From NCBI GenBank assembly GCA_030248215.1, contig JASANG010002537.1, positions 310,001 through 374,000 on the forward strand: DNA of 64,000 bases. Reading direction: 5' to 3'. The DNA is from Enoplolaimus lenunculus (Eukaryota). The position numbers and the translations under genes are program-made. The notes below the pieces were generated by a model that worked only from the letters and a program-made list of their open reading frames with translations, was not told the DNA's origin and did not search any database. Below, piece after piece: positions 5,294 through 43,600 of the stretch (the first letter of the stretch is position 1; every line of letters begins with the position of its first letter).

Positions 5294-8200
5294 ATGTTTC
5301 GATCAGCTGCAACGAAAGCAACTTCTGCAATATTGTCTGCAAACAGTACAACGTGTTCGCAATTGACTGCTGCTGCTCGGCAACAAAGCTCGCAGCATGC
5401 AATTAAGTAAAGTGATTTGTCAACATACTGCTTAGTTTGAGTGCTTTTTTAATTAAAAGCGCTTCCGCCGAAATTAAAAAAAAAACTTAATTTGAGTTCG
5501 CAATATCAGCTAAACATTTCGCACAACAAAGTACTTCGAATTCTAGTAACTAATAGTGCTCAAGACTCCGTTATATCTTTTATCGCTCGTGCTTTTCAAA
5601 TTCAAACAACGATCTTAATCTAAACAGGAGGTTTTAAAGTCATGCGTTTGAATGGTTGTTCGAACAGTCTGGGATCAAATTGTAAAGTTGAAAACATTCC
5701 GAAACGATTTTGCTTGTTGAAATGCTACTCAACCTGCCTCGACGCGCTGATCACTTGTAGGAGCGTATACAACGGGAGGGATAGAGGTTACATATATATT
5801 AACCTTTATCACTCTCCTTGTATACGCTCCTGTAAGTGCGTATATATTTATATTTTAATATTATATCAGTGACGTGTCCAGAAGGTTGGGGTCCAATGAG
5901 TAAGGTCCCGTCCCTGCTCATAAGACCGAAATTAAAATGAAACTTAGTACACTATAGTAAATGCAGTATTTAGTATACCCTAAGAGATCAACAAATTCAT
6001 GTTGCAAATAATATTCCACACTGAAATCGTACTCTCTAAAAACTTAAACTTAAATTATAGCTTACGCAAGCTTGAATATTAGTTCAAGTAAAACTTTTAA
6101 ATGACTGACTGCGCGGACTAACTAAACTATAATTGTAACTTTAATTTTAGACTAACATATTTTAAGTGTAACACGAGTTTAAATTAAATTTTGTTTTAAT
6201 TTAAGTAACAAGTGCAACCGTATCTCAGATTATCCACAGGTCGCAAACTGTGTTCATATCGAAAACCAACTTTCTGAACGACAAATTTCAGATAAGTCTT
6301 GTTGTGTATGAAATGGTTCCGTTCTCAAAACTTATCCAATCATTCAAATTTCAGATACGTCGAACCAATATCCGAACTTTATCGGCACGATCACGACGAT
6401 CGATGTGGGACATCATCCACTCGGGCGGACGCTCAACCTCGACTGATCAACTTTAATCGGTTAACCGGTGACCATGTCGAATCTGTCCTGTCATTGTATC
6501 TTGGCCCTTATCTTGATATTGAACCGTTGAATCGTGCAGTTGGATTGACTCGGCGAGAAGCGCAAACGTCGTATCGAGAAATGTTAGATAACGCCGCACG
6601 CGATGGCAACAGTTTTGTTGCGGTCGACGAAGATCGTGAGAAAGTTGTTGGTGCGATTATTAACGAGAAACAACTGGTAAGTTTGCGTCGCACGGTACGA
6701 ACAATATAATCAAGTTCTGGAAATTGCATCAAACCAAACAGATAATCACTGTGGCAGAATTTAGAATTGCACTTTGTTCGGAAGGTATACACTCCTAAAA
6801 TGAAATCTTAGCCACACCTCGAATTAAGGACTGAAAATTAAGGGTAATTAAAATTAAGGGTAATTAAAATGAAGGGTAATTAGAATTAAGGGTAATTAAA
6901 ATTAAGGGTAATTAAAATTAAGGGTAATTAAAATTAAGGGTAATTAAAATGATTAAGCGTAATTAAAATAAAGGGTAATTAAAATAAAGGCTAATTAAAA
7001 TAAAGGGTAATTAAAATTAATGCTTAGGCTTACGAATACGCTTAATCTACTGTTACGCCCTTTGAAGTAACATTGGACAACCAATTAATAATATAATGTG
7101 TCGCTCGCTATGCAACACATTGAGCAACAACTTGAGCACCAAGCAAAAGCTTAATAACAAACCAAATTCTATTGTTTTGTTGAAAATTGTTTTAATTAAC
7201 AATTTTGTTCGTTTTTGCAGCGTGGCCGCTATCTTTACACAAGTCGTACCAGTGATAAGCTTGCACGAATACATGCGTTTTTGCGATTTGTCGAAGGTGA
7301 CGCGTTTGCACAGTTGCCACACGCTCAAATGATACTCAAGATACAATCTGCAGTTGTACGACAGGGATACCAAAATCATGGTATGTCAGTCGTGTATGCA
7401 AATGAGATTTGATTAAAATGCTCGTAGTTATTTTGTAAGTTTGAAAATGATACTATTCGACAACAGCTTGCAGTTGTAGGTAAATTACAGGTCAAAGTTT
7501 TAGTGCTAGCTGTAGCACTTATCGTTACATAATACTAGCAAGCTTGCTTGCTGAGAAAGGTACGCTATGTGTGGCGTGAATGAAAAATTTCGCAATGCCG
7601 CAAGTTTACTTTGTCTGAAGCAAGTGTATGGTGTACAGAACTACGTAAGCTTTGATTTTCACGTTCGACGTTCGCAAAACTTTAACCCTTTCACTCATAG
7701 AGTATACTATAAGCAACTAAATACAATAATGTACGAGAAATACACATACTGTGAGCAGTGTTTAACGTTTATAACATATGCGCAGATCGTGAGAGCCCTC
7801 TCGGGCTCGAGCGTCAAGCTCCTATAGCTCAGTGGTCATCGTAAACGCCTCCCTACCATGAGACTGGGGATCGAATCTTACCTTCAAATTACATTTCATA
7901 TGAAATTGAAAATATTCATGTGAGAAAGGGTTGAGACAACAAGTGATGGATGCTGCACACATCTGAGAATATTGAACGGTGTTAAATCAATGAATATTGA
8001 TTGAAATATTTCTGCAATTTTATGGTCGTTTGTAGTATTTAAGTTGACTTGAAATTCATAGCTACCTAGCAGCTATTGTGTGTTTTATTTTTGTTTCAGG
8101 AATTGGTAACATGTTAATGCAGATGTCAGTTGATCGAGCGATACAAGAACAGTGCGATTACATCACAGGCATCGCAACATCACCTCTCATTCAGAATATG

Positions 8201-16901: not shown

Positions 16902-18809
16902 AGGGGCGCTAAATATTTTTAGGACCGGCAAACAAACGTTTTCGATGACTTACAAGTGAAAACTTTTTTGGGGGAGCCAAAATTATTTCGGGGGGTTGAC
17001 CCCCTGGCCCTTCTAGCTACGAGCCCGCGCGCGTTGCATTTTCTTGATACCGCAAACCATCTACTGTGATTCGCAGCTCCAAAAGATTTGCAATTTCGTA
17101 TGCTTGTTTTCAGGCAAATTGCTATAACTAGCCTACTCTTGTTATAAGTCAAATTCGAACTTCATATTGGCAACTGACTTAGAGTTAAAAAGTCAAACAT
17201 TTTAAAAACTGCTGAGTTCCCGTTTGTGTATTTGTCTCGCTGCAAAATTAGAACTAAAGCCTCTAAATTTGTACTTTCTGTCAGCATTAACTTAACTACC
17301 AGACAAAACCTCTGACATAAGTCAAATTTGGACTTGAGTCAACATGAGACGAAAGACATGATATGCTACAAATGTATATAGCTTGTTGTTCACTTGGACC
17401 AAAAAACTCAATATCGTTTGGAGCGTTCAAATCATTCAATAATAAAGCAAAAAAGTATTGGTATAAAGACGTTCAAATTTGCAAAATACAAAATGCTGGC
17501 ACCGCTAAGGTAGTACCTAACCGTGCTAATGTAACTAAATGCGTCCTAGTCCATAACTTTCAAACGGCAATAAACTAAGTGCAAGCTTTAGACTAATTTT
17601 TTTGCCTAGACTTAGGCTTTGGGCTTAGGTATAAGCTCATTGTTACGTTTAGGCTTACGAATATGCTTATACTACTGTTACTACTCTGTTCTATATATTG
17701 GCCGGCATCGTTAATGCTTAAAAAGCACTAGAATTAATATTGCGAATACCATAAAAAGTACTAAATTGCAAAGTGCACGGTCGAAACACTACAAGTCATT
17801 TTAAAAAACAACTTTGAAGGCTTTTTTGCAAATTCAAATTGATTTATGAACGTATTTTCTGGAAAAATGGTACAAAAACATGGGAAACTGCGTATACATT
17901 GTCGTATTTTTTGGCGAAAATTGACAATGACAGTTTGTTGAGAGTAAGAAATGTTGATTTTCATTAGCATTGTTTCCTGAAATGCTATAATGTACGAAAT
18001 CACACGCATTTGAAATATGCTTGTAACAATTAGTAAAAAATATTTAATTATTAAAAATATAACTTTAAAGGTGATAAATGTTTACAAAGACTTTATATCT
18101 CAGTTTAAAATTGTATAGATATATCTGTAAAACACTTTACTTCGGAGCGCTAAGAACACACCATACTGAAAGGCGTACGATTCGAGCCGGAGTTGGTTAT
18201 TAACCCCTATCAAAACATCACCCGTACACACCCAGGAACAAAATGTATAGGCAACATTGGTGAGAGATTAGAACATAAACTTGTATCAAAGCAAAGATTT
18301 CAGCCTAAGCTTGGCGCTAGAGACTGAGTAATCCGAACACCAGAGGCCTATAATTCTGCTCGATTATATATTATATATATATTTTTATATATAAACATTG
18401 ATGACGAGGTGAAACTGCTCATAAAAACCCGACTGAAAGACGGACATATACTACTCAGACTGTGGAAAATTACCCTTTTTCTCAAGCTACTACTCTAAAT
18501 GTCGATTATTTTGAACGCAAAAAAATTCGTGTTGGCTGGTTTAATGCAAATTTTAAACGAAACTACCAGATTGAGTTTTTTAAATTCCGGAAGTGAAAAG
18601 ATATCGGACGCTTTTTACCATGAATATATTCAAATACGTGTCGGCTTTAAAACTTAGATTTTAAATTATTCAAACTAGTAATTAAACGATGCACGTCAGT
18701 TTCACTTCATAAAAATTGTCTATGCGAATGGTTGATGTTTCCGTTTTTTTTACAACGTCGAAATTTAAAACGTTTTTGCGATTCTCAGATGTAAGTTTCG
18801 TTCCTGTTA

Positions 18810-19206
18810 CTGTAGTGACCCGAATAAGACGGGGGCTGATATTTATTTGCCTTCTCTAGAGGGTATCCACTGGTATTTATTTTTTAACCGCACTCCGCCA
18901 TACTTCGTTACTGATGTACTCATTATTGCAACGATTCGTTGAACTAAACGTTTATTTGTCTTGTATCAAAAGCTTTAGGAATGTACTTTCATGCTTAAGT
19001 ATGCCTTAAAGTTTCGAACTCAACTATTTGGTCCTGGAGTTATTTATCCACTATTATGAGAGAAAATTGGCATTTATTGACTCTAATTAGGGTTTAGCAA
19101 CTCTATCCGCATACGGGCTCTTATTAGGGATACGGACTTCTATCGATTGGGACTCAAAATGGGGACCGCTCCTTAATTACCCCCTCTAATATTCGGGTCA
19201 CTACAG
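18810..19206 (+). mobile_element. TA-target (Tc1/mariner-type) MITE (family A)
   Basis: TA-CTGTAGTGACCCGAATA ... TATTCGGGTCACTACAG-TA; four near-full copies in the window. Confidence 0.9.
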
Positions 19207-20167
19207 TAAGTTAACATAAAAAATTATGTATATAATTAATTTTAAGTGAATTTTTCAGTATATACCAGAGGTCCCACCCCGTTGCGTTTTCTGACAAATT
19301 TTTTGTAGCCGCTCCATGTCGCCCAGTGTGGCCCCACGAAAAAACTTCGCTCCACCAGCTCCACGAAAATAGTAGATATATTTCAATATTTTATGCAATT
19401 ATAAGTTTTAGAGACATTTACATAATCAGTACAGTTTAAAATGAAATTTTGCAAACGGCGGGCCAGAAACTTTGGTGAACGATAAAAAAATTTCAAATAT
19501 TTAGTTTTGTCTAAAAACAGATTTTTCAGCTTACTTTTGAGCTAAAGTTTTCAATATCGAAATAAAGTTACCTTGCGATTTTTGTACCATTCGCCTTGTA
19601 TAGGCGGGTAATTCCGCGCCGCTCCATTGAGCTCCACGGAGCCCAGCCCACGGTCAACTTCCATCTCTGTTATATACTATACCTCAAGCGGAGTTGGCAC
19701 ACACATGTGATTAACAAGTGTTGCCACTATAACAGCAATACTGTACGTAAAGCTGTTTTGTTAGTTTTAAGCTTTAGCCACGATCGAGGTACGGGTTTAA
19801 TCTTAGGTTTATCGATTACTGGTTAGTGAATTGTAGATTTAGTCGTTTTTGGCATTTGCAATATACCTTCGCCAACAATGGCCTTATGTCCCTTATTTGC
19901 AAAAATAATAAGAATCTCAGACGTCATGTATTGTTGTTTTTTCATGAAACCAAGATTGTATAAACAAATGATGAATGAACTAAATTACTATCATAAAGAA
20001 CTAGCGAATTAGGACACTGATAATATATGGTGACCTGCGTCGAGTTTGTAGACACTCCAACTTTTTAGACGGATTCTATGCTTCAGAAGACGTTCGCATA
20101 TATAGGCATGTTTTCACTATTTGGCAAAAAATGTTAACGTTTTAGATGCACAGGTTTTACACACATC

Positions 20168-20390: not shown

Positions 20391-21251
20391 ACAAAAATCT
20401 TTAGATCTGAGCCATTTTAACATCAAATGTGTTTCGGCTTCATTGCGATTCGACAAAAGTTTAAAATGATACTTTACCGCGTTTTCAACGTTAACACAAA
20501 ACCAATGATTTATTCACAATTGAAATATTTTCATTTGATGTTATAAAGCACATCCTTTTAAGAACGAATAAGCGTCACAGAGAATTCTATAATTCGATGT
20601 TTTTGGTACAAAATTATTATTTTCGTCGTGTTATCCAATCATAACTCAGCTTCAAACCGTACGTTTTCCAAATCTAAGAAATTCATTCGCTCGTTTGGCA
20701 GGACCAGCTGAAATATATTATGAATACTGTTGGTTACGACGCAAAGTTTGCAACACCAAAACTTTAACACCTTTTACAATGAATAGTGTGTACTTTTAGT
20801 TATGTTTCTTGTCCTATGGACCAGATTATTCTTGGGATTAAGCGGCACATTTAAAAACTTAGATCAGAGAGGCGTTGGGCTTTCGGGGATCCCTGGCAAA
20901 ACGAACCAGACATGGTACTTCAAAAAAACTTTGCGCCTTTAATCCAGGTTAACGCGCTATTTACGTTTATTTGCCTTCTGGCTCGTTTACGTCTCGGATA
21001 CCCTGGTCGTGGCACTGCATCACTGACCTGCGTCAAAAAATTTATTTTTAGTGAAGGCTTTGAAATAATAAGCGTTTCGTAGCGACGGTTTACTTGGGTA
21101 GTTTAATAAGGTATATAGTAGTAATAATATTTCTCAGAAAATTGAAAATTTACGTGAATGGCAAAATTTGTTTCAGTCAGTTTCTAGAGCAACCCGTATT
21201 GAACACTAAGTTCTACAATGTCAAGTTACAAGCTAAGTCATTTCTGTCTGC

Positions 21252-21466
21252 GGGCCCGTGTAAAGATCAAGGTGGACTGGTTTTCCGCAAGACTACAATC
21301 GTGTAAGCTTTTAAGCTTCAGACTATTTTTTGTTGCTTAGGCTAAGGCTTGGGCTGAAGCGTAAGCTTTGAAATAACGGATTCTTTCCCTTAGGCTTAGC
21401 CGTCGGCTTAGGCTCAGGCTTAGGAGTACATCTACTACTGTTAAGGACCTATTCTGTACATTGGCC
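21252..21466 (-). mobile_element. Family D telomere-repeat MITE, reverse
   Basis: GGGCCCGTGTAAAGATC...TTAGGCT variants...TACATTGGCC. Confidence 0.78.
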
Positions 21467-22189
21467 CTGACAGGATACGTATTATATTAACAAAATCTGA
21501 GTTTAAACAAACTAAACACGATATGATGATAGGGACCCAGCATCATGCAGTAGCGCAACAAACAAATAAAGCATTGCGTATAAAAATGCAATTTGCAGAG
21601 ATTAGTCGTTTCAAAATTTAGTTCTAGTCAATTTTTGCATTTGTTAATAATGGACCTCAGGTCAGTTACATACATCAACGAACGCGAAATTAGATTTTTT
21701 GACCATTTAACTTTAAGTCAACAATTTTTAAAACTTTTTTTGTTAATTTTGGTACGGAGTAAAAAGTCGAAACAATATAATTCATTCGTGGAACTTCGCA
21801 CAGCTCGCGTTAACCCATAATTCAACTGATGTTATGATCATTTCCGCGATATAACTGATTCAATCATTTGTTTACGTATGGTTATTTGAAAAGCAGTAGA
21901 ATTTGAAATTAATTTCTATTGGAAAATCGTTATACAAATGCACACTTTTTGCCAAAAGTTTCAAACTTTTATACAAATTCAATAAGTATATACTGCATTT
22001 CAGCAAAGCCGTGTATCACACGAAGCCAAGCCTTTGCGTTATACAGTTGTGCAAACGCTAATGAAAAATCTGGGGTTACTTGCAGTTAAAGCAACGATGG
22101 ATCAAAAAATCATGCTTAAATTCAATATTTAAAAAGCTTAAAGGATTGAGCATTGTCAAGTCTTGCAACGCACCAAAATGCAATTTAAT

Positions 22190-22924
22190 TTAACGGCCAA
22201 ACCGGATAAACTCGTTGTTGCGCTTTGATAGCGGCCAATTTGGTAAATCATAATATACCATCATCCATAAATCAGACGGTGCTAAATTTTTTACTCGTTT
22301 CAATATTCTGAATTTGCTATTTAGGAAATTCAGTGAAAACAAATCCGTTATAAAATATTGTTCAAATTGTTCAGATTGAAAATAAATACTGCTACCGATT
22401 GATATATTAAGGTTTGGCTTAACGCCAAAAGCTGTAATATCACCTTGAGAATTTTTGTGGCAGAAAATGGTTAAAACTGCCCGTTGTTTGCGATATCTAC
22501 AGACGGGTATTTCTTCATTAATCGCAACACAATCGTCAAAACTTACATCATTTTATGCTATAACAACGCGCTTAAAATTAAAATAATTGTAAGAGATATG
22601 TACTCTTGTAACTGACTATCAGAGCAGCGATAAATTCGAAATCAAATTTAACCTTAAACTCTTACAATAGTCTCCATCCAACGGCTGTGACGCAGCTAAA
22701 TTTCGACACCACGATTGAAGTTCCAGTGCTGCGTTGGGTTGAAACGCAAGTTGACACAACGAATGAGTCAATTCATAAGTGTACCAGCGATCTGCCGCAT
22801 CAGCTGGTATAGTTTTCAAATCGTTGACTACAGATAAAGGCATTCCGCTTGCGGTCCACGACGCAAGTCCCAAAACCAACACCAACTTTGACACGTTTAT
22901 GCTGTAAGTTTGTTGTGCGACCAT
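22190..22924 (-). CDS. flp-8: FMRFamide-like peptide precursor, flp-8/AF1-like, single NNEFIRFamide (about 116 aa, 2 coding exons)
   Basis: Exon 1, 22924-22666, has a signal peptide, a Cys pair and donor T|GTAAGA. Exon 2, 22281-22190, follows a TTTAG acceptor in matching phase and reads SPSDLWMMVYYDLPNWPLS-KR-NNEFIRF-G-R-stop. FLP-8/AF1 is KNEFIRFamide. Orthology and the exact exon-2 acceptor are inferred. Confidence 0.8.
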
Positions 22925-23695: not shown

Positions 23696-23862
23696 GGCCA
23701 ATGTAAAGATCATGGGAATAGAGTAAACTTATTAAACTTTAGACTATTTTTACTTCAGCCTATGCATAAGCTCATTCTTACGCTTATGCTCAGGCTTAGG
23801 TTTAACTTTAGGTTTAGGAATGTTCTCATGCTACAGGTCCTCCCCTGTTCTATACATTGACC
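23696..23862 (-). mobile_element. Family D telomere-repeat MITE, reverse
   Basis: GGCCAATGTAAAGATC...CAGGCTTAGGTTTAACTTTAGGTTTAGG...TATACATTGACC. Confidence 0.72.
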
Positions 23863-24290
23863 AAAGTTTGTAACGCTGAAAACATCGCTGAAGCTGCTGG
23901 CACTTATAAGGTCATGGTGCGTTGGCTAATTGGAAATTAGAAAGGTTCACGGTGGGTCATGATGCGTCAAAGTTTTGACCCAGGTTCATCTGATCCATTC
24001 ACTTTATAAATGCAATTCAACGCAATAGACCACTACGTTAAAATTGAGTTAACAAAGAAACCTTGCATGCTTCAGTTAATTGCTGACAACTTAACCGGTG
24101 AACGAATATATATTATGAAAATACAACGGATGAGCCCGATAGCCTATTCGCGGCTTTTTATACTTCCTGATGCTTGCCTGTGTTTTAATGCTTCAACTGG
24201 ATGATTTAGTTTCCCTAATCAGCTAAAGCACATTTTAAATGTTAAACTTGGGTAATATGGGTTATGAATATCCATGCGTCATATATCATA

Positions 24291-24745
24291 CTGTAGCGAC
24301 CCGAATAAGAGGGAGGTAAAAAGAGGGAAGTAATAAGAGGTGGGTCCCCGTTTTGGGTCCCAATCAATAGGAGTCCGTATCACTAATAACAGTACGTAAG
24401 CGGTTAGAGTCCCTAAACCCTAATTAGAGTCCATAAATATCAATTATCTCTAACTGTAGTACATAAATGACCCCAGGACCAAAAAAGCTGAATTCGAAAC
24501 TTTAAAGTGTACCTACGTTCTGAAAGTACCTTCCTAAGTACAACATTGCATTATCGCTCAAGCTTTTGATACAATACAAATAAACATTCATTTCAACGGA
24601 TAGTTGCAATACCGAATATATATTAGTAACAAAGGACGGCCGCCGGTGGATTAAAAATAAATAACAATCCGTAACCCAATAACAGGGAGTGCCCTCTGAA
24701 AATGCCAAATAACGATCAGTCCCCCTTTTATTCGGGTCTCTACAG
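24291..24745 (-). mobile_element. TA-target MITE (family A), reverse
   Basis: TA-CTGTAGCGACCCGAATAA ... TTATTCGGGTCTCTACAG-TA; the interior is the reverse complement of 18810-19206. Confidence 0.9.
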
Positions 24746-25478
24746 TAAGTAGTATCCCATTTTCTGCTCTGGGTGTAGGCTAGTAAAGCATTGCCGCGTG
24801 GGTTTGAAAATGTGTTTAACTCTATAAGAAATTGCTTCAACGCCTTTTGATAACCATTTCCTTCCCTGTGTGTATGCTAGTAAAGCGAACCTACGATACT
24901 TCGTCCCCCGACAACTTGTCGCCAAACTGTGTCCTAAAGCATATGAATAAATCTAAGCACAGTCCTAAGCGCATTACTAAGCCTAAAGTCTAAGCCTAAG
25001 CATAATGACGGGCGACCAATCGTTCAATTGTTGGCTTACAAGTGGTCGGTCGACGATTTGACGGGCACCGAGTTATCGTTATGCCTATAGAAACGTATAA
25101 CCGTGTGGGCTGGAAAATGTGTTTAATTGTATAAGGAATTACGTCACCACCTTTTGATGACATTTTACCACGTGACCGAAAATAACCGTTTTGCATACTC
25201 TTACTTCAGACGCAACAAATTTGATTATCGTTTAATTGTACTCCTATGACTTTGGTTCTGTATTGGACATTACAGATTATCATATTGTCACTAACAGCAT
25301 TCACTAAAATATACCTACACAAGGCATGCGGAGAAGGTACTGTTTGAACATAAAACTGTTGCAAAATTTAAGATGTTGCTAAACATAAAACATAAAATCG
25401 AAATATTTCTACTAGACTGAAATAAATTTTGTGTTTTATTATTTATGTTTAAAGACAACTGAAGATTTCCGTTTTTTA

Positions 25479-28562: not shown

Positions 28563-31248
28563 TCAACCTGTTGATGATTATATATTTATAAAGTTTTATC
28601 GATTTAAAGCTCAAAAACAGAATATGAAATGAAATTTTGAGGCCGGATTCATGAAAATAATTTTATTTACCACACGTCTCCAAAAATTGATTTTATTCAA
28701 AATATTGTGACAGGATCCTTAAATTTCACATTGTTAAGAGTTAAATTGGTCTCATTGTATTTGACTCTTGTTATGTCAAATAAGAAACCGTGCCATTAAG
28801 GCCATAAACATGTGACAAAACCTTATAAGTGGTTTATAGGTAATAGGGCAACACTGAATAGCAACATGAAAAAAATTATAATTAAGCATGCATATATTTT
28901 TATTAGAAACACAATCTAAACTATTGTTACCCCCGACTAGTGTCATGCCGATGCCTCACTTTTGCCAAAACATACCTCCAAATATAAAATCAATGATTTA
29001 TAATGCTCGCGTAAAAACGTTTACAACAGCTTTACGATTAACAAGCGGCCTCTGAAAGGTGCAGGGAGTCGATGTTGGTATCGAAATATATACACGTATC
29101 TGGCTAGTTTAACAAAAATTTTAGGTAGTGCAGATCTAAATATCGCTCCTGTTCAAAAAATGTTATTTTAACCGAAAGCGGAGATGGAAGAAGTACACTA
29201 TAGGTCAGCATCCTGATCAGGATTTTCCTGGATTACACGTTTATGCAGTTCTTTTCTCGATGCACGCTATCCGCTCTGATTACGTAACGCGGCCGATAAA
29301 TGTTTATTAACCCTCCCAAATCTTTTACAACACCAAGTATTACAAGCAAATCACAGGTTATGCAATTTTACTTGTAGCCTGATCCGAAATCCTTAAGGCC
29401 TATGCCTGAATCCGTTTTAATCCAGCCACTGGCTTCATCGATACCAATACTTTTACTATTTCCCAGAGTCTGTGCAATCCTAACCCCGTTAGAATTACAC
29501 TCTACTTTTCCCAAGTTTATAACCGTGCACTCTAACCCCTTTAGAGATACACGCAATTTTACGACCAATCTAACCCCGTTAGATTTGGCCCAATCCGTTG
29601 TAGAATATTAAACCTAACCCCGTTAGATTCACTAGACTACGTTCCCCAGGTTTCCTTTAAATCTCCGGTCTTCCCCAATTAGCACATAACGCCAGTATGC
29701 GATACTGGGTAAATCCTGCGCCCTGCGCAACATAAGTGAACACAATACGCCCTTGTTTCCTTCACATTCTATTCCACCGTGACTATTCTTAACTTAAGTT
29801 CACTTCCAATCTTACTTACCGCAACTCCTTAGATACTTCACACGTCCAGAAATCCCAAATAAGAAAGCCGTAATTCGCACACGAAATTCAACAGAAAACT
29901 AAGCCACCGATTTCCACTAGCCAAAATTTCAAACTGATTCCGGTCCCGGCTACCCCTTGTGCGTCTCGACCTAATTTGCATACAGACTGATACCCACAAC
30001 TGGGTGTCCGCCGATGCTATTTTAGGTCCAGAGCCACCCATCCTGTACACCAATTACCTACAACAACAACAATACAATATACAACAACCAATCATGTCGG
30101 ACACTCACGACATGCTGACTTAGGCTAGCGATGTCGTTAACCGATCGAAACCCTTGCAACAAAATGCTTTCTTGAGGAAACAGAAATATGGAGGAGCTAT
30201 ATATTCTCGCACAAAAAACGGAAAACAGGACAGCAATATTTTTTGAGACTGATTTTATCCGTGGGAATGACCCTATGCAGGATTGGGGGCTGCCGCCCCC
30301 AAGCCCCCCGTACTAAGCGATCTTGCTAACTAACTCACAAATAACAACAACAAAGTATAATAATGTTCGTGTATGCGCAAACAGGAGTAGCAAATGCTGC
30401 TCTTCGGCAATATTGCTGTCCCGCGGGATAACGGGGCGCCCCTGAAAGTTATACGGGCCAATTTTCGGATGAAATCCTAAGACAAATTGCGACGAAGCCA
30501 TAAAGAAATGTGTGATTATTTTTAACTGCATGATTTCCTGCAGACAATAAACTGTTTGATTCATTGATCATGATAGCCAATCGGCAAAAATCCTAGTTTT
30601 ACCCGTGATAGGTGTAATGTGCATTATTCAGCGTTACATTTTTGAATGGTTTGTTTTCAAAATTATACTAATAAATGTTTCTTAGTATGTAAAATCGAGG
30701 GACTGACATTTTACACTGTGAAATTATACAATTGTATTGAACACAGAAGAAAAAATAAGGGCGGGTAAACGCGGGTAGTGGATAAATGAAACTTTGCACG
30801 GTATACTTGCAAGTAAAAAAAATCCGCGAGAAACGGGCAGCGCGAAAGAGAAATATTCTCTCACTTACGCCTCTTAGCTGCATATGAATTACTTACATAG
30901 ATTTCAGTCCCCCAATATTTATTGAACTTGAGGCTCATGTTTTGGTGCTGATGTAGAGGCTAAATAACGGATAAACACATAGCTAGTTTTAGTACTTAAA
31001 CATGGATTTTTTGGTTCTGCTGCTATTAAAAATTAAGAATATCTTGTTGCGGATTCCAAAAAGTCGATATAGATAACATTGTATGGTTGTTCTATGATTG
31101 TACTTTATGTTGTTACACATTTAGAAATATTTGTTGCAAATCTGATTGTCTGCTGTTAAGATCAAGTAACATATTGCTCAATGTTTTGTTAGTTTTTGAG
31201 TACTGTCAGAACTGCACGGTCGGGACGACCCCTTTCTCCGAAAGATAT

Positions 31249-31320
31249 GGCCACGCCGGGAATTGAACTTCGAATCTTTCGCTCGTTAGTCAAGCGCGCT
31301 ACCCATTACACCACGCGGCC
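31249..31320 (-). pseudogene. tRNA-Arg-like pseudogene / tRNA-derived module
   Basis: Minus strand GGCCGCGTGGTGTAATGGGTAGCGCGCTTGACTAACGAGCGAAAGATTCGAAGTTCAATTCCCGGCGTGGCC: 72 nt, with an intact acceptor stem and A/B-box-like motifs, resembling eukaryotic tRNA-Arg. The anticodon and T stems do not pair. Confidence 0.7.
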
Positions 31321-31653: not shown

Positions 31654-34600
31654 ATGGGCGAAACTCAAGAAGAGGTTTGTGCCGATCTTATAATTTTGAA
31701 CATGTATTCTATCAAAGAAAAGTTTTAACAAAAATACGATAAAACTAAGGACTCTAAATACTTTGTTGTATCTATATTAGGGAACGACCGGTTTTTTATT
31801 CAGCCGGATGCTGAAGTGGAGACGGATAGTTAGTATTTACCGAAACGTTACTTTAAGTATATATGTTTAATGATTTAAAACGAGTTGCTCATAGCTTGAA
31901 TTTTCATTTCACATCAGTGTTAAAAATTAATCGAAGCTCGCCAACTTGAGATTTTGCGCGGAATGAGTACTTTTAGCCTTAAAGATTTTATTTTTTGCAT
32001 GTCAAACACACTTTCTCTTTATTTTTTAGTCAGATGTAATACATAGATAAACGGGTAAACTGTGTTTAGTTTACATATATAAGAGCGATCATACACGGTT
32101 AAATGGGATTTTCTTTTCAAAACAGTACTTTTGTTTGTAAAAATTACATCTCACCCACACACAAGATGTTCCATCCGATTGTCAACATGGGCGCTTCCCC
32201 CGGTCCTGCACTTTGCTATGATTTTAACTGGAGCAAAGTTTTCTTTTTTTCAAATCGGTCCGATTGTGCAGACCACATAAGAGATTTTCTTCGCCGAAGT
32301 TTACCCTCGACATATCAAGTAAAAACGTAAACTTGTTTGCGCATTAAGGCAAAAACCGCCAGATGTTGTGAAAAACATAAAATTCCGCCTGCATTATTTC
32401 ACTGTATAACAGCACCATATTCGTATTACGTATATCGTAGCTCATATTGATAGTTGTCTTGTCTTTACGTGTTCTAACTTGGCCCCGGTTTGCCCCGGCC
32501 CCATGGCAACTTAACCTAAAATACTACAAGCTCCTCTTGAACGCGTTATCCCTCTGAAAAAGTATCATTAAGACTAGGCTTGTGAAATATTAGCCTAGCA
32601 GAAATGTTTGATGACGTCTCTAAAGGTGTACGTATATTTCACTTATTTAGTACCTGGAACGTTTGTGCAAAGATTTGTATGAGGCAACAGACCATCAAGA
32701 CCGGGCGCTTGCTGAAAAAACGCTGCTTGAATTCTCCGAGTCTTCTGATTGTGTTCGCAAATGCATGGTACTTTTAGAAAGAGGCAAGGTAGGCAATGGG
32801 ATAGGGTAATCAGCGTCTATACCTTTTTGATTAATCAATACGTAATGGTTATTCACTGGGTTCATTTGGTGTTTCTTCGATATTGTCACGTTTTGCCCGC
32901 TTTAGTTTTTAAAAATCATTCATGTTTGCTTGAAAACAAATCTTTCGTTGCCTTTCAATTACTTAGTGTTAGTATATATCTGCAGAAAAAGAAATATAGT
33001 AAAAGATATCGCTGCAAAGTTGTAATTGAAAGTAATGAAACTTTTCGTCAACTTGTTTTCGAAACCGTAATTTAGCTAGCTAGCATTGTAGATTTTTTGT
33101 TTTCCCACCATTTTCAGTCTTCTTACGCGCAGTTAGTTGCTGCAACAACGTTATTGAAAGCTGTGTCTCGATCGACTCCCGTAGTATCGCTATCATACCG
33201 AATCGAATTGAGTAAGTTTTGTGTAAAATTGCATAAACGATGTTACTTTATTTTGTCATACTTTTGTTTGAGCAACTTTTTCAACTGTGCTTTGAAACAT
33301 TCGTACTAATTGTGATCAGATGTGTTTATATTAAAGCCCAAATCTTTTCAGTATTTGTACGCAAAGCAACAGCAAATTTGATATAATAAATGTTTGCACT
33401 AACACAGTTTTCTCAACGCGAAAACTGAAAAACTGAAATTATATGCTTAAATGTTATATTGCTGTGTTGAAGATATTTGACTAAGTTATGCGAGTGCGAG
33501 GTTTTGTTAACACTTTTCTCTTATATTTGCTAATTTCAGAAAGTTACCTGTTGAACTACATGGTCAACCGTCCAAAAATGCCAAATTACGTGCTTTCATC
33601 GCTTTGTCAGGTATATTTGAAAATTCTTTGTCATGCTTAGTTTATGATACGTATTATATTATATTGAACAGGTTTTTCTTTGTAGCCGCTTTATGATGTT
33701 ACCTAAAACGAAATTGATTTGTGTAATACCTAATGGGAACGAACTAACGGAATCATTATTGTTGACAATGTTTTTGACTTAAAAAGCAAATCTTTGTTTT
33801 GTATAACGATAGCGGTTATCTAATATCTGAATGAACACATTTACGCATACAATCTAAACAAACATTTTCACGTTTTTCGATTTTTCAGCTATTTGCACGG
33901 TTAATTAAGTTGGGCTGGTTTGATTTTACAAAAGAGGATGAGTATATGTTCCGATCCTGCATCGACGAAATTTTCCAAGTAGCTCAGGTACGCACCTTAT
34001 GTTATATAATAGCGACATTGTTTTCCGTTTCATATGTTTTATATTGTTTCAATTCAAGCTTGAATTCAAACCCAATCTCTTCGGTGGCAGGAATTTACGA
34101 TTACCAATCAACTATATACGCTTGATGCTCCTAACGATGGCGCTTTTACGTCTTCTGAAAATACTGTACTGTACTGTAGACGGGCAATATTTGTGATACA
34201 GTACAGATTCTTTACTATTCGCGCACATAGTTTGCAATTTAGTGCCCATAGTATAGTCTGTGTGGCAGGATTAATCAGATGTGTGTAGATTGGATGATAT
34301 TGTCTCAGTCCAATATGCGAGCGGATATTCGGCTCCGGTATAACATCCGGCTAAAAACCGATATCCGTGTTCGGTGCTTGTATCCGGTTTATACCTACCG
34401 TATATTGAATAGTTAAGGTTGTGGTCCCGAATAACTCAGAAACCGTTTTTACATTTGGATGTATTTAATATGTTGCGGCGTTTGTATTTCCATAAAATTT
34501 TGCAACAGATAACAAATTTATATGCTTCATCCGGTTCCGATATTTGGTAATTTGGTATTTGGTCGTACGCTGCACTCATATGCATGTCAAAGGGCGTAGC

Positions 34601-37600
34601 CAGGTGGTCACGAGGGCAGAGCGCCTCTTGGTTTTTGTCAATTGGTTTTAGGAACTTTTTCAGTAGACAACTCAAGAAGCCTCTTTGAAAATTTTATGGA
34701 ATGTAACTCCCGTTGCAAAATGTACTTACTAAGTGTGCTTGACCACAGGTTTATCAGTTCGGTTTATATTTGACAGCGGTTTTAACTTTAATTATTAGCT
34801 TCTGATATACTGTGGGGACAACATGGGTCTGTTCTTGCGTTAAACAGGGGGTGAATAGTTTGAGATGATAACTGTGTATGTAAAATCAAGAAATAGGCAT
34901 AAGTAAACTAAACAACCAATTGTGCGACATTTGATAGGTTCGGGTTCGTATTTTCTTGTTTACGTGGATCAAAGTTTTTTTCGATATTAAAAAGTAGGTT
35001 TCGTTTTTTCCAGGGTTCTCTCGATTTGTGCACTATAGCTGTTCAGTTGTTTGGTCATATTGTTACTGAAATTAATCAAGTAAGTGGAAATGTTGGCTGA
35101 GAGACAAATTGCACCGGTTCTGCCCAAATATATATTCAAATGGAAAACAAAGTAGGATATACGTTCTATGTTCTTTCAAATACTATCAATATACCCTTGA
35201 GTATTGGTTTATTGTTTCACTTTCTGTGTGGGTTGCTCGTATGTCGGATATTCTTGAGAAAAATTCAAATCAGACTGTGTAGTTAGTAGGTAACCTGAAT
35301 TTTTATACATAACTTAACATTTGTTTGCATTCAGGGTGCAATTGGAATTTCGGTTCCGGTATTGAAATCTTTAAATTTCCTTACACTGTTCCGGCATTCA
35401 ATTTTGTTGCATGTTTCAGAGTGCGGGTATTTCCTCGATCAGTAAACATCGTAAAACGGCGGCATCGTTTCGTGATCTCTATTTGTTCGACATTTTCAAA
35501 CTGTCAATTCGACTCCTGCAAGAAGCATTAGACAATATTAAAAATGTTGATTTGTCAGATGAAAATCAGGTTTGTTTTAAGTATGAGATATACGGCTTAG
35601 AGTCAAAGCTGTCCGCATTTAGTTTTGATCTGTATCTTTTTTTCTAGTATTATCAGGCATCCGTTTTATTTATGAATGACGATATCATTAGGGTCCTCAG
35701 TGGTGTACTACATAAAGTTAAAAATTCATTGGTACTTGCATTATGCAGTCATTAGTGGAACAGTAGCATGATCTGTCTTGCCTGTTTCAATTTGGTAACT
35801 AAACTTATTCAAATAGTCTAGCCACCGTGCTATATGACGTGCCAGTTGCATTTCAATAATGATTTGTTGTAGCAAAGCATTATTGGTCAACTATTATCGC
35901 TAGCATTAAGCTGCCTGTCGTTTGACTTTATTGGATCGGTATGCGATGACTCCGCGGACGAAAGCCTCTCTGTTCAGGTGCCCACTGCTTGGCGAGTTGG
36001 TAAGTATTATTGGCGGCGTCTGACATTTTTTAGCAGGTTAAGCAATGAATTAGAGTTTTGTGACATTTTCAATCGATGTATGTATCGATGGTTTTGAAGA
36101 TTATTCAATATTACGTTCATATACTGAATTATAGAGTTGCGTTAAAATTGTAGCTGAATGATGTTGTATGAGGTATGGTACGCTGAAACTGATTTCTTTA
36201 CTTTAGTGAATTTTATATAAATAAAATCAAACTATACTGCACTGTACTTATTGTTTTTCAGCATTTTTGGATGCAACTATACTCAAGATGTTTTATTCCC
36301 TGTTTCGAGCTCTACCTCCGGTTTTAGCTACTGTGGTAAGTTCAAACTTTCAGGAGGCTTTCATATGTTGGACGATCTAGATAAGTTGAAGGAAATATAT
36401 AGTTTTTCATTATATAGATTTTAAGATAAACTGTTCTTAATCCGTTATAAAGTTATAAATGTCCAAATTGCTAGCTCAGTTATACAAGCTATAATTTTTG
36501 AGAGTTTATTAGTGGTTTAAGGTTCAAATTTGTAAATATAACTAATTTTTGTAATAAGTTTGAATTGATGATGGCAGTGGTTTAATCTGAAGACGAGAAG
36601 TAAGTAGAATTCAATGGCAAGATCGTTTTATGGAGTGCACTTCAGGCGCTATCGTGCTTAGTTCAGTTGGCTTCTATTCGTCGAACAATTTTCAATAACA
36701 ACGAACGTCAAGATTACTTAAACGCGCTGGTACTGGGAGTCAAAGATGTTTTGGAAAATACTCAGGTGTGTTTAGCTTAGATTATTTTCCGACTCGCAGC
36801 AACATGTTATCATTTAGAACTGTGTTGCTTTTGACACACTGAAACCTGTTTTTGAACTTTAATATGTACAACTAGATTAACTGTGATTGGTAATAGTTTT
36901 TTGCTTTTTTGCCAATTTTAAGTTTAAATTAGGAAAGTGTTTATCTTGCGCTACATGCGAAAATAACAGCAAACAATTCCGCTATAGGTTCTCAGCGAAC
37001 AAAACGTGTATCACGAGTTTTGCCGACTGATCGCTCGTTTGAAAAGTAACTATCAACTCGCTGAATTGATCAAAGTGCCAGATTATCCTAAAATCATTCG
37101 CATGATTGCGGAATTCACTGTCAGCAGTCTTGGAGTAAGTCTTGATAAGATTGCTATTGTATGTATATTTGCGTACGTTAATGTTTCAAAATTTAGAGAA
37201 ATTGAGCAAGCTCGACCTAGTTTTGTTGGCAAAATAATACAACTCGGATTGTTCGCCGGTTACTGTGAGATGTTTGGCTTATAGTTCAGTTTGATCCAGA
37301 ATATATAGATCGGGTACTTTGCTAAAATTAACGCCAATGTAAAGAAACGGAATAGGTTTGTGCTGGAATGATTATGATTTAGTTGGCAGTCGAGAGTCAA
37401 GAAAGTTTAACAATTATTGTTGAAGAGACTACCTGACGGGTCTAACCACTTCGAGGTCTCTGTCAATGATATATACCTGCCTATTTTTCCTGGGGATGAC
37501 AGCAACATCAGTGTCATAAGGTTTTAAAGCATTCTCTGACTGATGAATCCATAAACGGTGAACTACTTTTATACGGCACGTGATATTTGTATCAATTTCC

Positions 37601-40600
37601 TTGTTTTGCGATTTCGCAGATGTATCAGTTTTCGGCGAACTCAATTCATTATTTGCTTGCGTTTTGGCAGCGGCTTGTTTCCAGTATGCCGTATATTCGA
37701 AATGATGAAAACCATCTGTTACACAGTTACGCACCGCAAGTGACCAAGGCTTACGTAGAATCACGCTTGAATGTTGTTGCAGCTGTGTCTAGGTATTTTT
37801 AAGTATTTGTTATGAATCGCAAAGAACGATTTAGATTAAACGTTCAGTTCTTTACCATCATCTTTAAGTAATTCTGTTTCGTATGATATAAATGCAAATT
37901 TTTTACCTCATTTATTGTTGGCATTGCACTAGTGAGGATTTGGGCCTGGGCCAAATTTCCTCACTCGAAAAATTTTCATGTTCAGCACCCACTTGAACGA
38001 ATCTCATGGTTTAAAATTATGTATACTTATAAAATATGTAAACTTATAACATCGGAACGATTACAAAATGGGTTAGCGTCACCTCTGAACTTCAAAATAT
38101 GAAATTTATGCGAAAAAATTTAAAAATACAAAAATTTGCTAAAAATATCAAGAATTTGCGAAAACTTACAGATTGTAACATTTTAATTGTTTATTTCATA
38201 CAATATTGAAGTCAAGTCATCCGCCATCCTCTAAGCTTTAGGAAAATTTAGGACCCTTTAAAAACGTTTTTGTCCGATTGTGAATTATGCTAGTTCCGGT
38301 TCCCTTCGCATGTAGACTTGCGTCATTGATTGTCGAGTGCACCTGAACTGGTTACCGGCAGATGTTTTAGCGTTTTCCTAACTTTGACATTGCGTTTCTG
38401 GCATCGTTCGTATTTCAGGGATGGAATAGAAGATCCTTTGGATGATCACAGTTCGCTTGCTCAGCAGTTAGAACAAGTAGAATGAATCTATTCTATAATT
38501 TTAAATATATTTTGAGAACGTATATAAGTTTTTCAACTCATATTTGTTAATGTAATGTCATTTTGGGAATAGACAGTTAGCAGTGCTTTGAACAAACACC
38601 AGTTTATCGTGATATCGCGTTTTTATATCAAATTATTCTCTTGATTTCAATTAGCTGGTTGTGTGTTTGTAAGATTGTTCTTGATTTTAAGTTTGAATTT
38701 TGAAATTTTAATGTAAAAAGATGTCTATCTGTCATGGAATTGCGCTATATTGTTTATAATGATTGGTGCCGTCTATGACTATTGGAACTGGTCCAGAACA
38801 ATCAAGTGCAAGATTATCCTAATTACGGTTTTCAGCTATCTGTCATATGTCGTTGTGATTACGAGTCGTTTTGTCAATTAATTGCCCAACTGTTTGATGA
38901 AATGGCATCGCGTTATCAGTCTAGTGTGACGGGAGCTGGTGTTACAGCCAACAGTCAAACAAGTCACCAGCCGCAAAGTAGCACCGCTGAAACAAACGGA
39001 CCCACAGCGACGCCGAGCATTGCCGATCAGGAAGGCTGTTTGGCGTGGCTGGTATTCATTTCAGGTGCAGCCATTGGCGGCCGAGTCTCGTTCAGTAGTT
39101 GTGAAGACGAAGACGAAACCGACGGGTATTTGATTTGTCGGTAAGTGCAAAACCCATTTGTTATTCTGCAAGAAAGCATTTAGACAATAATTAAAGCAAC
39201 ATATAGCTTGGCTCTGTTTATGAGACGGATGATGGTTAACTTTTAATTATTTTGTTTCAGAGTTTTACAACTGATGCAATACACTGATTCTCGGTTGCCA
39301 GCACACGGAGTTGAAAAATTGGAACTAGGATATCTTTGGTTTTTAGAGCAGTTTCGAAAGATTTACATCAGCGATCAGATAACCAGGATATTAAATGTAC
39401 ATGCTATGTTTTTGTTTTGTCCAGTGTATTATCCTTGTAACATGTAATACTAACCGAAAAGTTTGTTTATTTATATCATTCACTTAGCAATGTTAAAACT
39501 AGTATGCTCACCCAGTTTCTGTTGTAAATAGGTACCACAGCATCAAAACCTGGATAAGCGCAACAATAAGTGCTATTAATTTTCATATTTCACTGAGGTA
39601 TGTATACAATATCATAGGTTGTTCGAACAAAAATTTGCAATGTTGGCTGTTTCAGGTATACAAGAAGCTGGGTGAAATTCTTGGTCTTAAAGATGAATCT
39701 ATGGTTCTAGCTGTGTTTGCTCGAAAAATGTTAGATTTTATAAAAATGACTTTTACTTTTTGATTCGTTTTTATCGGAACAGAATAGTTATACTTGTTAT
39801 TTTATTAGACGTTGATGTCAGTGAAAACTACGTTTCCTGATGTTTACACTGTACAAAACAATTTAACAAAATCGTTTAGTTCTTTGAATTACTATGTAAA
39901 AAGGTTCAATAATTTGTTAGCTTTGCTGCGTTACGATTTATTAAATAGGACTACTTTGAATGTTTTAGCATCACCAATTTGAAATATTGGAGCTGTCAAG
40001 AGCGAATAATCGATGAAACACTTGCTTTATTGAATGATCTTTCGATCGGATATGCGTCAGTAAAGAAACTAGTCAGACTTGAAGAAATACAATTCCTTTT
40101 TAATAATCATACGGTGAGGAGATAAATGAGTCAGCCATATATAACACGAGTTTCTGTTAGTACGAAAGTCATTGAGATTATAGTTTGGCATAAAGAGTTG
40201 AGGAAGTGAAAATTTTCAGACTAATGGACTAGAGGTTGTATCTGAACACCTTGACGTGTCTAGTGTTGCAAGCTATACTTAAAAACTTGTACTTTTTGCA
40301 GTGTGAATTGAGATAATGAGTGATTTTAGGGCAAGATAATTTGTGGTTACATAATTTCATAATTTGATATTTTTTACCGTATAGCTATTTTTTAGTTATC
40401 CATAATAAACATTTAGACGTAAAATAAGCACGGATTGCAGTGTGTGATACCGTGTGTATTCCGAGTTATTTTATATCATTTCAGAGCGATCATTTTGAAT
40501 TGTTGGGAACAAATGCAAACGTCAAAATGATGAAGAGTCGTAGTAAATTTTACACCGCATTAACTCGATTATTAGCGTTAGAGTTACAGTTAGAAGACGA

Positions 40601-43600
40601 CGAACAATTCCAGCGATATATGATGCCAATTACAGGTATTACAGGTCGTTGTAGCAAGGCTTTGAATCAGGCTTAACTTTATCTGCAGATTTGATATTCA
40701 TATATAGTTAATTTGAATGTTTGTTGATTTTAATTAAGGTTTGTTCAATTTGATCAGTTGGTAACACGATTTGGTCTAATTAATTGCACCAAACCTATGG
40801 GACTAATATTTTGCTTTTGTAGACAAAAATAGTGTGAGATATTTCTCCACCATCTCTGATTTTTTGCACTTGGTCACTGACTCTTATTAAAATATCAATT
40901 TTTCGCTTGTAATCGATACTCAATTGTTAAGTTTTCTTAAACAAAATCATTGCAGTATGAACGCGACGAATTTGTAGTTTTTCAGCTTCTTTGGATCAAT
41001 TACGGAAGCTGTTTGCATCTATGCCTGACAGTTCATTAATTGCTCAAATTGAGGCCAAGGTACGCGATTAGTTTGTTCAGAATTTTGTAAAAAATTTATG
41101 CTGTAAGTATAGTGCAAAACAGACAGCTGCTGAATGAATGTGAGAATTGGCTAACTTTTTGTTCGCTGTCACTTCAAAAAGGGGCTAGTTGTATCTTTCT
41201 AAAGGCAATGTTTTTTCGGCTAACCATAGTGAAAATATTATAAACCATTTTAGTTTGCTTGCTGTGGAACAGCTGAGTTTCGTCTTTTTCGGTTGTAAAG
41301 GCATTAAGGCGACGTTTCTCAATGAACTGTGTGTAATTTTTAGAGAATGACACGTTTTTAACTGAAGTTGATCTCAGGACGTTTTTAGAGTTATTCTTTT
41401 AATGCTATGTGCTTCTTGCTAAAGAATTGAAGCAGTATTGTTTATTTTTAGAAAGCGATAATTGGCCTGGCTCGTGATATTCATGGCATAGCATTTGCAA
41501 GCAACTCAAAGTCAGCATATTATATGCTGTTCAATTGGCTGTGAGTCTAATTTTATTACTGTTTTCTTATTTGTTTATATTTACAAATGAATGGTTATAC
41601 TGTTGTATTCATGCATATTGGTTCTACGAAACATAATGCGTGTGTAACACGGTACGGGGTTACACTTGAACTAACCATAACGCCCGCTGTAAAGGTGCTC
41701 GAACTATCAACCCTTAGACGCCGCTTTCTTGTACAAGGAGCAGGCGAAAGCAAATTTCAAGGGAAACACCAGAAATCGCCGCTCACTTACTGGGTGCTGG
41801 CGAAGGAAAATAACACAACGAACATACTAAATATGCTGCCACTTTTAACACGAAAAAACCAATGCGATAACCTATAGTTGCGTTTATTAAGAGAATAAAA
41901 ACACCCGAATAGCGAAACTTAGACCTTACAACTCAATTCACCGCATTTTTTTACAAGAAAATGCATATATCGCATGCTTTGAAAAAGATTATAATTGTCA
42001 GCCACGATTCAAAACAAGTTGATATTGCATAATAAACTAAAATTATTCTCTGAAACGTTATGTTTTTAGAACAATATTTTGACAGACTGAATATCTGTTA
42101 AACGAAATTCTTGCGCTAAACAAACTGAACGAAATTCTTGTGCTATGGCAGAATAAAAATGCAGGATTTATAAAAAGAATATAAATTGCGGGGACCATCA
42201 GCAATTGCAGCATGAATGCATACGTTTGTGTGTAATTGTATGATGTTTGTGTGCGATTGTATGTATATGTAATCATGTTTGTTTTGTTTGTTTGTTTATT
42301 TGTTTGCTTGCTTACACATGTACGTACTCTCAGAGACGACTTTTTAGCTATTTCATATGAGATTGTTGCGTAAAATATCACAGAGTTGCGCATGGCTCAA
42401 ATCAGATTTTTTATTTTAAGGTACCCCGACTATTTCAATATCTTCCACAAAGCAATAGAGGTAAGTTGCTTTATTGCATTATAAACAGACTCACTTATTC
42501 ATACAGGTTCTTCTTTTCATAAACTGTGTTTGTGGTGTTAGAAATCGTTATTTTATTAAAGCTGGAGCTAAACGTAACAGAATTCACAATCATTTGTAAT
42601 TTGACTCATCTAAAACAAGGGTTTTGCTCACACAGCTTTGTCCCCCAACATTTATTGAAGTAGAAGCTAGATGGAACGGAACATACAATCAACCCAAAGT
42701 GTAATTTGCGTCAATTAAAACTAGGTGTTCAAATCTTTTACAATTTCAGAATATACTATTAAATTTATAAAAAAATTTCTTTTAAGCTATGGTATGCTGA
42801 TCCTGACCTCACAACGCCAATATTGAAATTAATGGCTGAACTGTGCCATAATCGCAGTCAACGCCTTAATTTTGACGTAACATCGCCGAATTCATACCTG
42901 TTGTTTAAAGAAGCATCGAAATTTATTTGTTCATATGGTAAGTTCAGCTTGCTTTAGTGGAGACTTAGTCTGGCGTTATTTGTGCGGCGCCGTCCACAAG
43001 TCAAAAAATGTTTAAAAAAATTTTATGCGGTAACATGCGGCATTTTACGTGCATTTCCTGCTATATGGTGCCGCGCAGCACCAGACGCCAATGAAATGTT
43101 CAAAAAGTAATGTGCTACCTTTAAGTCTATGTTGTAATGCTAGAGGGCATTAAGCTATACAAATGGATTGCCATTTTAGATGGATTCTCAATAACTGGTT
43201 TTTGTTCTACTAAATGTTTTTGGAACATTGGATTTTAAGTTCTTATTTTTTAATTCTTAACCTAAAGCCGAAAAATCGCAATTAATTTATAATCCTGTGC
43301 TAAGATAGTATCGCAAATGCTATATATAGAGTACGAGTTGCTTACGAGTTGCTTACGTTTTTGTAAGTTTAGAAGTATAAATGTGTTTATTTAATGCTTT
43401 ATTAAGTTGTTTGTTTAGGCACTCGTATGCTTGCCATTGCTGACATTCCAAAAGACCAAATGTATAGAATGCGACTCAAGGGTGTAACAGTATGCTTCGG
43501 TATGCTCAAAGCGTGCCTCTGTGGTGCATATGTCAACTTTGGCGTATTTCGGTTGTATGGTGATTCCTGTCTAGACGACTCAATTAATATGTTTATTCAA

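Follow-up and report, generated by a model that had tools for sequence, protein, structure and literature searches.

We propose that a locus on the minus strand of the window (the 64-kb stretch of DNA analysed here) is one RFamide neuropeptide gene, in which an exon encoding a signal peptide and pro-region (exon 1) is likely spliced to either of two short exons, 2a or 2b, and would yield NNEFIRFamide or ANEFLRFamide, respectively. We regard this as the probable reading of the locus, short of a firm one. The exons, their matching phases, and the cleavage and amidation signals are present in the DNA; both splices we infer from DNA signals only. The features concerned are as follows, in window positions.

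22666..22924, minus strand: exon 1, coding part, 259 nt, ending in phase 1 (open reading frame, hydropathy, coding score, GC)
22844..22924, minus strand: predicted signal peptide, residues 1-27 (hydropathy and -3/-1 rule, by script)
22706..22756, minus strand: Cys-x15-Cys (Cys57/Cys73), predicted helix-loop-helix (sequence and AlphaFold2 model)
22660..22665, minus strand: candidate donor site GTAAGA for both splices, phase 1 (nine-site matrix: 2.1 bits, top 22% of GTs)
22190..22281, minus strand: exon 2a, ATTTAG acceptor ending at 22282, stop at 22190, predicted precursor of 116 aa
22225-22220 and 22219-22199, minus strand: KR and NNEFIRF of exon 2a, then Gly, Arg and stop (translation)
22168..22173, minus strand: GTGCGT, a possible donor that lies 16 nt past the stop of exon 2a (5.3 bits, top 4.7%)
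21250..21470, no strand assigned: dispersed TTAGGC-rich repeat between 2a and 2b (families D1, D3, D5 and D17)
20652..20707, minus strand: exon 2b, TTTCAG acceptor, phase 1, predicted precursor of 104 aa
20696-20691 and 20690-20670, minus strand: KR and ANEFLRF of exon 2b, then Gly, KR, two residues and stop (translation)
20509..20514, minus strand: AATAAA, likely polyadenylation signal, 137 nt behind the exon-2b stop

A proposed front exon with two peptide exons

An ATG at 22924 (minus strand) opens a 101-aa frame in the open reading frame list (22924-22619). The sequence-only reading had proposed that this frame is left at the GTAAGA at 22665 and rejoined at the TTTAG at 22282, adding a hidden exon, and our analysis bears this out: exons 1 and 2a join in frame into a predicted 116-aa product with the C-terminus KR-NNEFIRF-G-R-stop. 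To score coding potential, we used a three-periodic model whose training set was 16 exon pieces from elsewhere in the window (3783 nt); when left out of the training, 14 of the 16 came out positive. The scores were set against the 99th percentile of a null made of stop-free non-coding stretches. The exon-1 pro-region scores 0.355 bits/codon (null 99th percentile 0.145), the read-through past 22665 scores -0.406 bits/codon, and exon 2a scores 0.205 bits/codon (null 99th percentile 0.196). The drop behind 22665 and the exon-2a score together support both boundaries of the earlier proposal. Exon 1 has a GC content of 0.46, compared with 0.24 upstream and 0.33 in the intron (next 234 nt).

Residues 13-21 of exon 1 are hydrophobic, with a hydropathy peak of 2.3, and cleavage of the predicted signal peptide is most likely after Gly27; this call uses only hydropathy and the -3/-1 rule, with no dedicated predictor. 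In a single-sequence AlphaFold2 model of low confidence (mean pLDDT 66.6), the pro-region forms helices at mature residues 19-33 and 40-52. Cys57 and Cys73, which may form a disulfide, probably act in folding or sorting, a role already suggested for the pro-regions of other FLPs. Searches of the PDB by sequence and by fold returned no match. The exon-1 protein search gave one candidate, which is not a relative, and the best Atlas score for exon 1 was 0.80, with no lead; the exon-2a end gave no candidate in a protein search. A phmmer search of exon 1 against 1.84 billion representatives had four matches, each the sum of 6-10 stretches, and both of the two inspected are tandem-repeat pseudo-proteins. 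A degenerate FLP-8 pattern matched metagenome contigs once (L001 41-69, minus strand), with KR and out of frame in a bacterial-looking gene, a match that we discarded as chance.

Splice sites were scored with matrices made from nine acceptors and nine donors of the exportin-7-like gene of the window, picked by eye, in part by the expected sequence of the protein; TTTCAG ends seven of the nine training acceptors. By this measure the acceptor of exon 2a ranks as weak, with 0.4 bits (top 36% of AGs), and is one of five phase-compatible acceptors of its frame. That frame stays open for 89 more codons upstream of the acceptor (22552-22283, minus strand), as it does in 6 of 5000 shuffles; among about 1100 window frames of at least 31 codons, 14 (about 1%) reach 120 codons. 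The upstream open stretch contains a Cys-x8-Cys, and no acceptor reaches those cysteines. Use of TTACAG at 22431, a phase-1 acceptor that scores higher, would lengthen the product to 166 aa, and the extension it adds looks like intron (GC 0.27, -0.264 bits/codon), so we retained the boundary at 22281. Two further kinds of structure were rejected. Mini-exons via the GTAAGT at 22546 run into a stop with five of six acceptors, the sixth (22602) ending in phase 0 with no good downstream acceptor, and none of four candidate continuation exons after a split Arg codon (IR|FG) is convincing.

The peptide encoded by exon 2a is as earlier described, an AF1/FLP-8-like sequence with Asn as its first residue. 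The Pfam FARP model matches the exon with 13.1 bits, under the cut-off of 15.5. The window has one match to the pattern [KR]R-x-NEF[IV]RFG and none of 150 fourth-order Markov copies of the window has any, and a looser pattern, a dibasic site followed by RFG and a basic residue, occurs twice (Markov mean 0.33, at least one in 36 of 150). When Leu is also allowed ([KR]R-x-NEF[ILV]RFG), about 3e-6 occurrences are expected by chance per window.

Inspection of every RFG triplet in the six frames (23 in total) uncovered exon 2b, on the same strand about 1.5 kb downstream of exon 2a (gap 1.48 kb), and with it the earlier description of the gene as single-copy falls. Its KR starts 11 nt behind TTTCAG, and its acceptor at 20707 (9.2 bits, top 1.2%) outscores every other AG in 22640-20650. 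The coding score of exon 2b, -0.077, lies within the null and, at 17 codons, the exon is too short for the score to inform. A search for a third peptide exon down to 12100 found none. Exons 2a and 2b both need phase 1, the phase in which exon 1 ends. In the 11-codon stretch that runs from KR to the following basic residue they share eight identical residues, six of whose eight codons differ synonymously, and blastn detects no DNA similarity between the two exons. That the peptide is kept while codons differ silently suggests an old exon duplicate under selection on the peptide, and an old exon duplication is the likely origin of the pair. The locus has the predicted layout of alternative peptide exons: two of them in phase with one front exon, and no second signal exon found.

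Against this model stand the modest shared donor (2.1 bits), the weak 2a acceptor and the open frame upstream of exon 2a.

In peptide precursors, KR cleavage is followed by carboxypeptidase trimming and then by glycine-dependent amidation. If both splices are used, each mRNA would encode one amidated heptapeptide at the precursor C-terminus, with computed [M+H]+ of 938.48 for NNEFIRFamide and 895.48 for ANEFLRFamide. Cleavage at KR would fall to a PC2-type convertase (PMC4196577). Exon 2b would be the default, more abundant form, because it has the strong acceptor and the AATAAA. Exon 2a may serve as a proximal terminal exon that has a weak poly(A) site of its own, only variant hexamers lying within 490 nt 3' of it (ATTAAA at 22189, TATAAA at 21973, AATGAA at 21786), or it may be a stop-containing cassette exon spliced on to 2b, as the possible donor GTGCGT suggests and no more; either form would give the same two precursors.

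Alternative readings of the locus

The canonical acceptor and AATAAA lie at exon 2b and neither lies at exon 2a, as would be expected if only exons 1 and 2b worked together, giving ANEFLRFamide, and exon 2a were a skipped or rarely used duplicate. We consider this unlikely, given that exon 2a retains KR, peptide, Gly, Arg and stop, differs from 2b by saturated synonymous changes, and has a coding score over the 99th percentile of the null. Moreover, weak splice sites are frequent in regulated exons.

Next in probability, and likewise unlikely, is a pair of tandem genes resembling adjacent flp-8 and flp-12, the one made of exons 1 and 2a and the other ending in 2b behind a signal exon of its own, its first exon being perhaps untranslated or very divergent. 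Such neighbours have counterparts elsewhere: Plectus flp-8 and flp-12 are numbered consecutively on a single scaffold (g14051, g14050), and a Wuchereria flp-8 model is fused to a FLP-12 peptide. The window holds no exon-1 paralogue, however, with no second copy of exon 1 in its 64 kb by tblastn or blastn, and the 1.48-kb gap, which is partly dispersed repeat (similar copies lie near 17580-17700 and 23700-23860), offers no convincing signal exon among 13 ATG frames. Only one of these frames, at 21574, has a hydrophobic core above 2; it is 20 aa long with a stop and speaks for a second gene, but none of the 15 best donors is a good phase-1 site for it.

A three-exon precursor carrying both peptides would arise if exon 2a were spliced out at GTTAAA (22194), before its stop, to 2b. 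This join is in frame, and clade-2 flp-8 precursors do hold two different RFamides. Nonetheless we think it improbable, since the donor scores -1.6 bits (top 60%) and the glycine of the first peptide would be left with no basic residue, so that the peptide would not be amidated.

Finally, chance motifs or an assembly duplicate, with no gene at all, would fit the lack of a homologue in the protein databases searched and the single chance occurrence, out of frame on a bacterial contig, of the exact FLP-8 motif in the whole metagenome collection, but we give this very little credence, as none of the 150 simulated windows has the motif and in the window two copies share a strand at a distance of 1.5 kb, both in phase with a signal-peptide exon, and 2a and 2b are dissimilar by blastn.

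Other features of the window

The neuropeptide locus is flanked by two copies, in opposite orientation, of a MITE-like element of 400-460 nt (18807-19209 and 24289-24747), whose terminal inverted repeats start TACTGTAG. A second neuropeptide-like precursor, of 123 aa on a single exon, lies at 12009-11638 (minus strand), with a signal peptide and seven repeats of K-R-P-A-P-V-x-x-W, most of them bounded by KR sites; one repeat ends in Gly, and a TTTCAG stands 62 nt upstream of the ATG. No relevant paper contains PAPVK, and the precursor has no match in NLP survey supplements and no entry in the protein collection; neither of two window open reading frames looked up exactly in that collection is present.

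The exportin-7/RanBP17-like gene occupies 33118-46567 (plus strand) in at least 12 exon pieces, one of which matches Pfam TPR_XPO7 (E 1.4e-19); an insertion rich in Ser, Thr and Gln lies near 38920-39020, and the C-terminus is extended. A protein search with an exportin-7 exon brought up 224 candidates, none of them a relative, and Atlas gave no lineage for exportin-7. At 56006-52585 (minus strand) there is a gene that resembles cuticlins, with a ZP domain and a C-terminal membrane anchor, its Cuticlin-N and ZP-C matches lying under the Pfam cut-off. Cuticlins, TTTCAG acceptors and TTAGGC-rich repeats are nematode traits and, with the exportin-7 exon, indicate that the genome is probably that of a nematode. 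An open frame at 6296-6706 (plus strand) has no Pfam match and presumably resembles an exon of arylalkylamine N-acetyltransferase, and Rfam reports a weak tRNA match at 31248-31320 (minus strand; 34.5 bits).

Comparison with known peptide genes

The locus has the generic features of an FLP precursor gene, namely a predicted signal peptide and, in both peptide exons, an RF-Gly peptide with basic flanks. We compared it with a 2024 phylum-wide survey of 109 species and 2143 flp genes (PMC11658156); further sources were PMC4058706, PMC7615250, 10.1101/2022.10.30.514428, PMC13302288, PMC5885757 and PMC8764417. NNEFIRF has no occurrence, nor has NEFLRF, in supplementary file 4 of the survey (2143 genes) or in our full-text literature searches; preprint supplements may hold further nematode precursor lists.

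Like flp-8 (AF1, KNEF[I/V]RFamide), the locus encodes x-N-E-F-[I/L]-R-F-amide behind KR (compare PMC11658156 supplementary file 4 and PMC4405611 supplementary file 2), and it has a signal peptide and a cysteine pair in the pro-region. By eye, 32 residues separate the second Cys from KR in the 2a precursor, compared with 33 in C. elegans. The flp-8 core N-E-F-[I/V]-R-F-G is complete in 2a, and in 2b Leu replaces Ile/Val at position 5. Unlike flp-8, residue 1 is Asn (2a) or Ala (2b), whereas it is Lys in the intact copies of about 90 catalogued precursors read by eye; one decayed Haemonchus FLP-8 copy begins Asn-Asn. Copy number in those roughly 90 catalogued FLP-8 precursors ranges from one to six (PMC11658156 and PMC4405611), and Trichinella and Trichuris flp-8 have one C-terminal KNEF[IV]RF copy beside a different RFamide. 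The locus differs in having one peptide per predicted mRNA, with the peptides on alternative exons. The earlier proposal of a single terminal-copy layout holds for each predicted mRNA, which ends in one peptide, and fails for the gene, which has a second peptide exon.

The Cys-x15-Cys of the pro-region, which the sequence-only reading had singled out, is present and is not special. By eye, the pair is 8-17 or more residues apart in the published FLP-8 precursors at hand (17 in C. elegans, 10 in Trichinella, 8 in Diploscapter, 15 in Panagrellus and Steinernema carpocapsae) and 15 apart in C. elegans FLP-14; a Cys pair also occurs in FLP-1, -6, -9 and -14 precursors as far as seen, and PMC11658156 remarks on conserved pro-region cysteines. 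Our comparison of the pro-region with published precursors was by eye only.

With flp-12 ([R/K]NKFEFIRFamide) the locus shares the EFIRF-amide end (2a) and a single C-terminal peptide per predicted mRNA. It lacks K-F-E-F, so the motif [R/K]NKFEFIRFG is absent, and it has the Cys pair, which none of the four FLP-12 precursors inspected has. With flp-14 (AF2, KHEYLRFamide) it shares the Cys-x15-Cys of C. elegans and the two endings EFLRF and EFIRF, which occur as variants in Romanomermis FLP-14; unlike flp-14, it has Asn for His at position 2 and no Lys-1, which departs from the motif KHE[Y/F]LRFG, and flp-14 usually has 2-4 tandem copies. Given that neither peptide has Lys-1, we place the locus beside flp-8, flp-12 and flp-14 as a so far unnamed relative of that group and do not call it flp-8. 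We estimate that it is somewhat more probably a paralogue than anything else, with a divergent flp-8 orthologue a serious second possibility and any other origin improbable. According to the survey, flp-8, whose peptide hardly varies, was proposedly among four flp genes that the most recent ancestor of all nematodes carried, and flp-12 is put forward as its paralogue; what is missing, it says, are genomes of under-sampled clades (PMC11658156).

In its likely mode of action the locus is an RFamide gene of the FLP-8/FLP-14 type in which the peptide exon is chosen as in certain insect genes. Isoforms of flp-23 carry different peptides. C. elegans flp-1, 2, 8, 11, 22 and 23 have been reported as alternatively spliced, and the text of PMC11658156, in the part available, does not mention splicing or isoforms. 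By analogy with C. elegans, in which FLP-8 and FLP-14 have a common receptor module (FRPR-19, FRPR-15, DMSR-3, NPR-39/40 and NTR-1), signalling would go via FLP-8/FLP-14-type GPCRs. The two natural variants at an otherwise fixed residue 1 are ready probes for this module. If an exon switch chooses a neuron's RFamide, this nematode group would gain a mechanism that insects are known to use. Exons this short easily escape gene callers and BLAST catalogues.

Among insect genes, Locusta myosuppressin likewise has a front exon common to two alternative peptide exons, joining exons 1+2 or 1+3 (8 vs 62 reads; PMC4237046). Here this layout and the peptides are predicted from DNA, and the reach of the finding is limited, the peptides being new members of a well-known family. 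The locus also resembles myosuppressin in having a signal peptide, a single C-terminal peptide, a Cys pair (separated by 14 and by 16 residues in two beetle myosuppressin precursors) and, in 2b, an FLRF-amide end. It differs in lacking the N-terminal DVxHV motif, its peptides having 7 residues vs 10 in the decapeptide xDVxHVFLRFamide, which it does not encode, and in its Cys pair lying about 30 residues behind the signal peptide. An early EF[I/L]RFamide state, a myosuppressin-like precursor with duplicated peptide exons and possible source of the flp-8/flp-12 pair and of flp-14, is a speculative and rather unlikely reading; if true, it would tie these nematode FLPs to the protostome myosuppressin layout. 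One front with duplicated peptide exons is also found in beetle DH37/DH47 and termite CNMa, whose peptides are unrelated to those here: Tribolium DH37 and DH47 come from alternative peptide exons (PMC6585902), and Zootermopsis CNMa uses a stop-containing cassette (75 vs 931 reads; PMC4237046).
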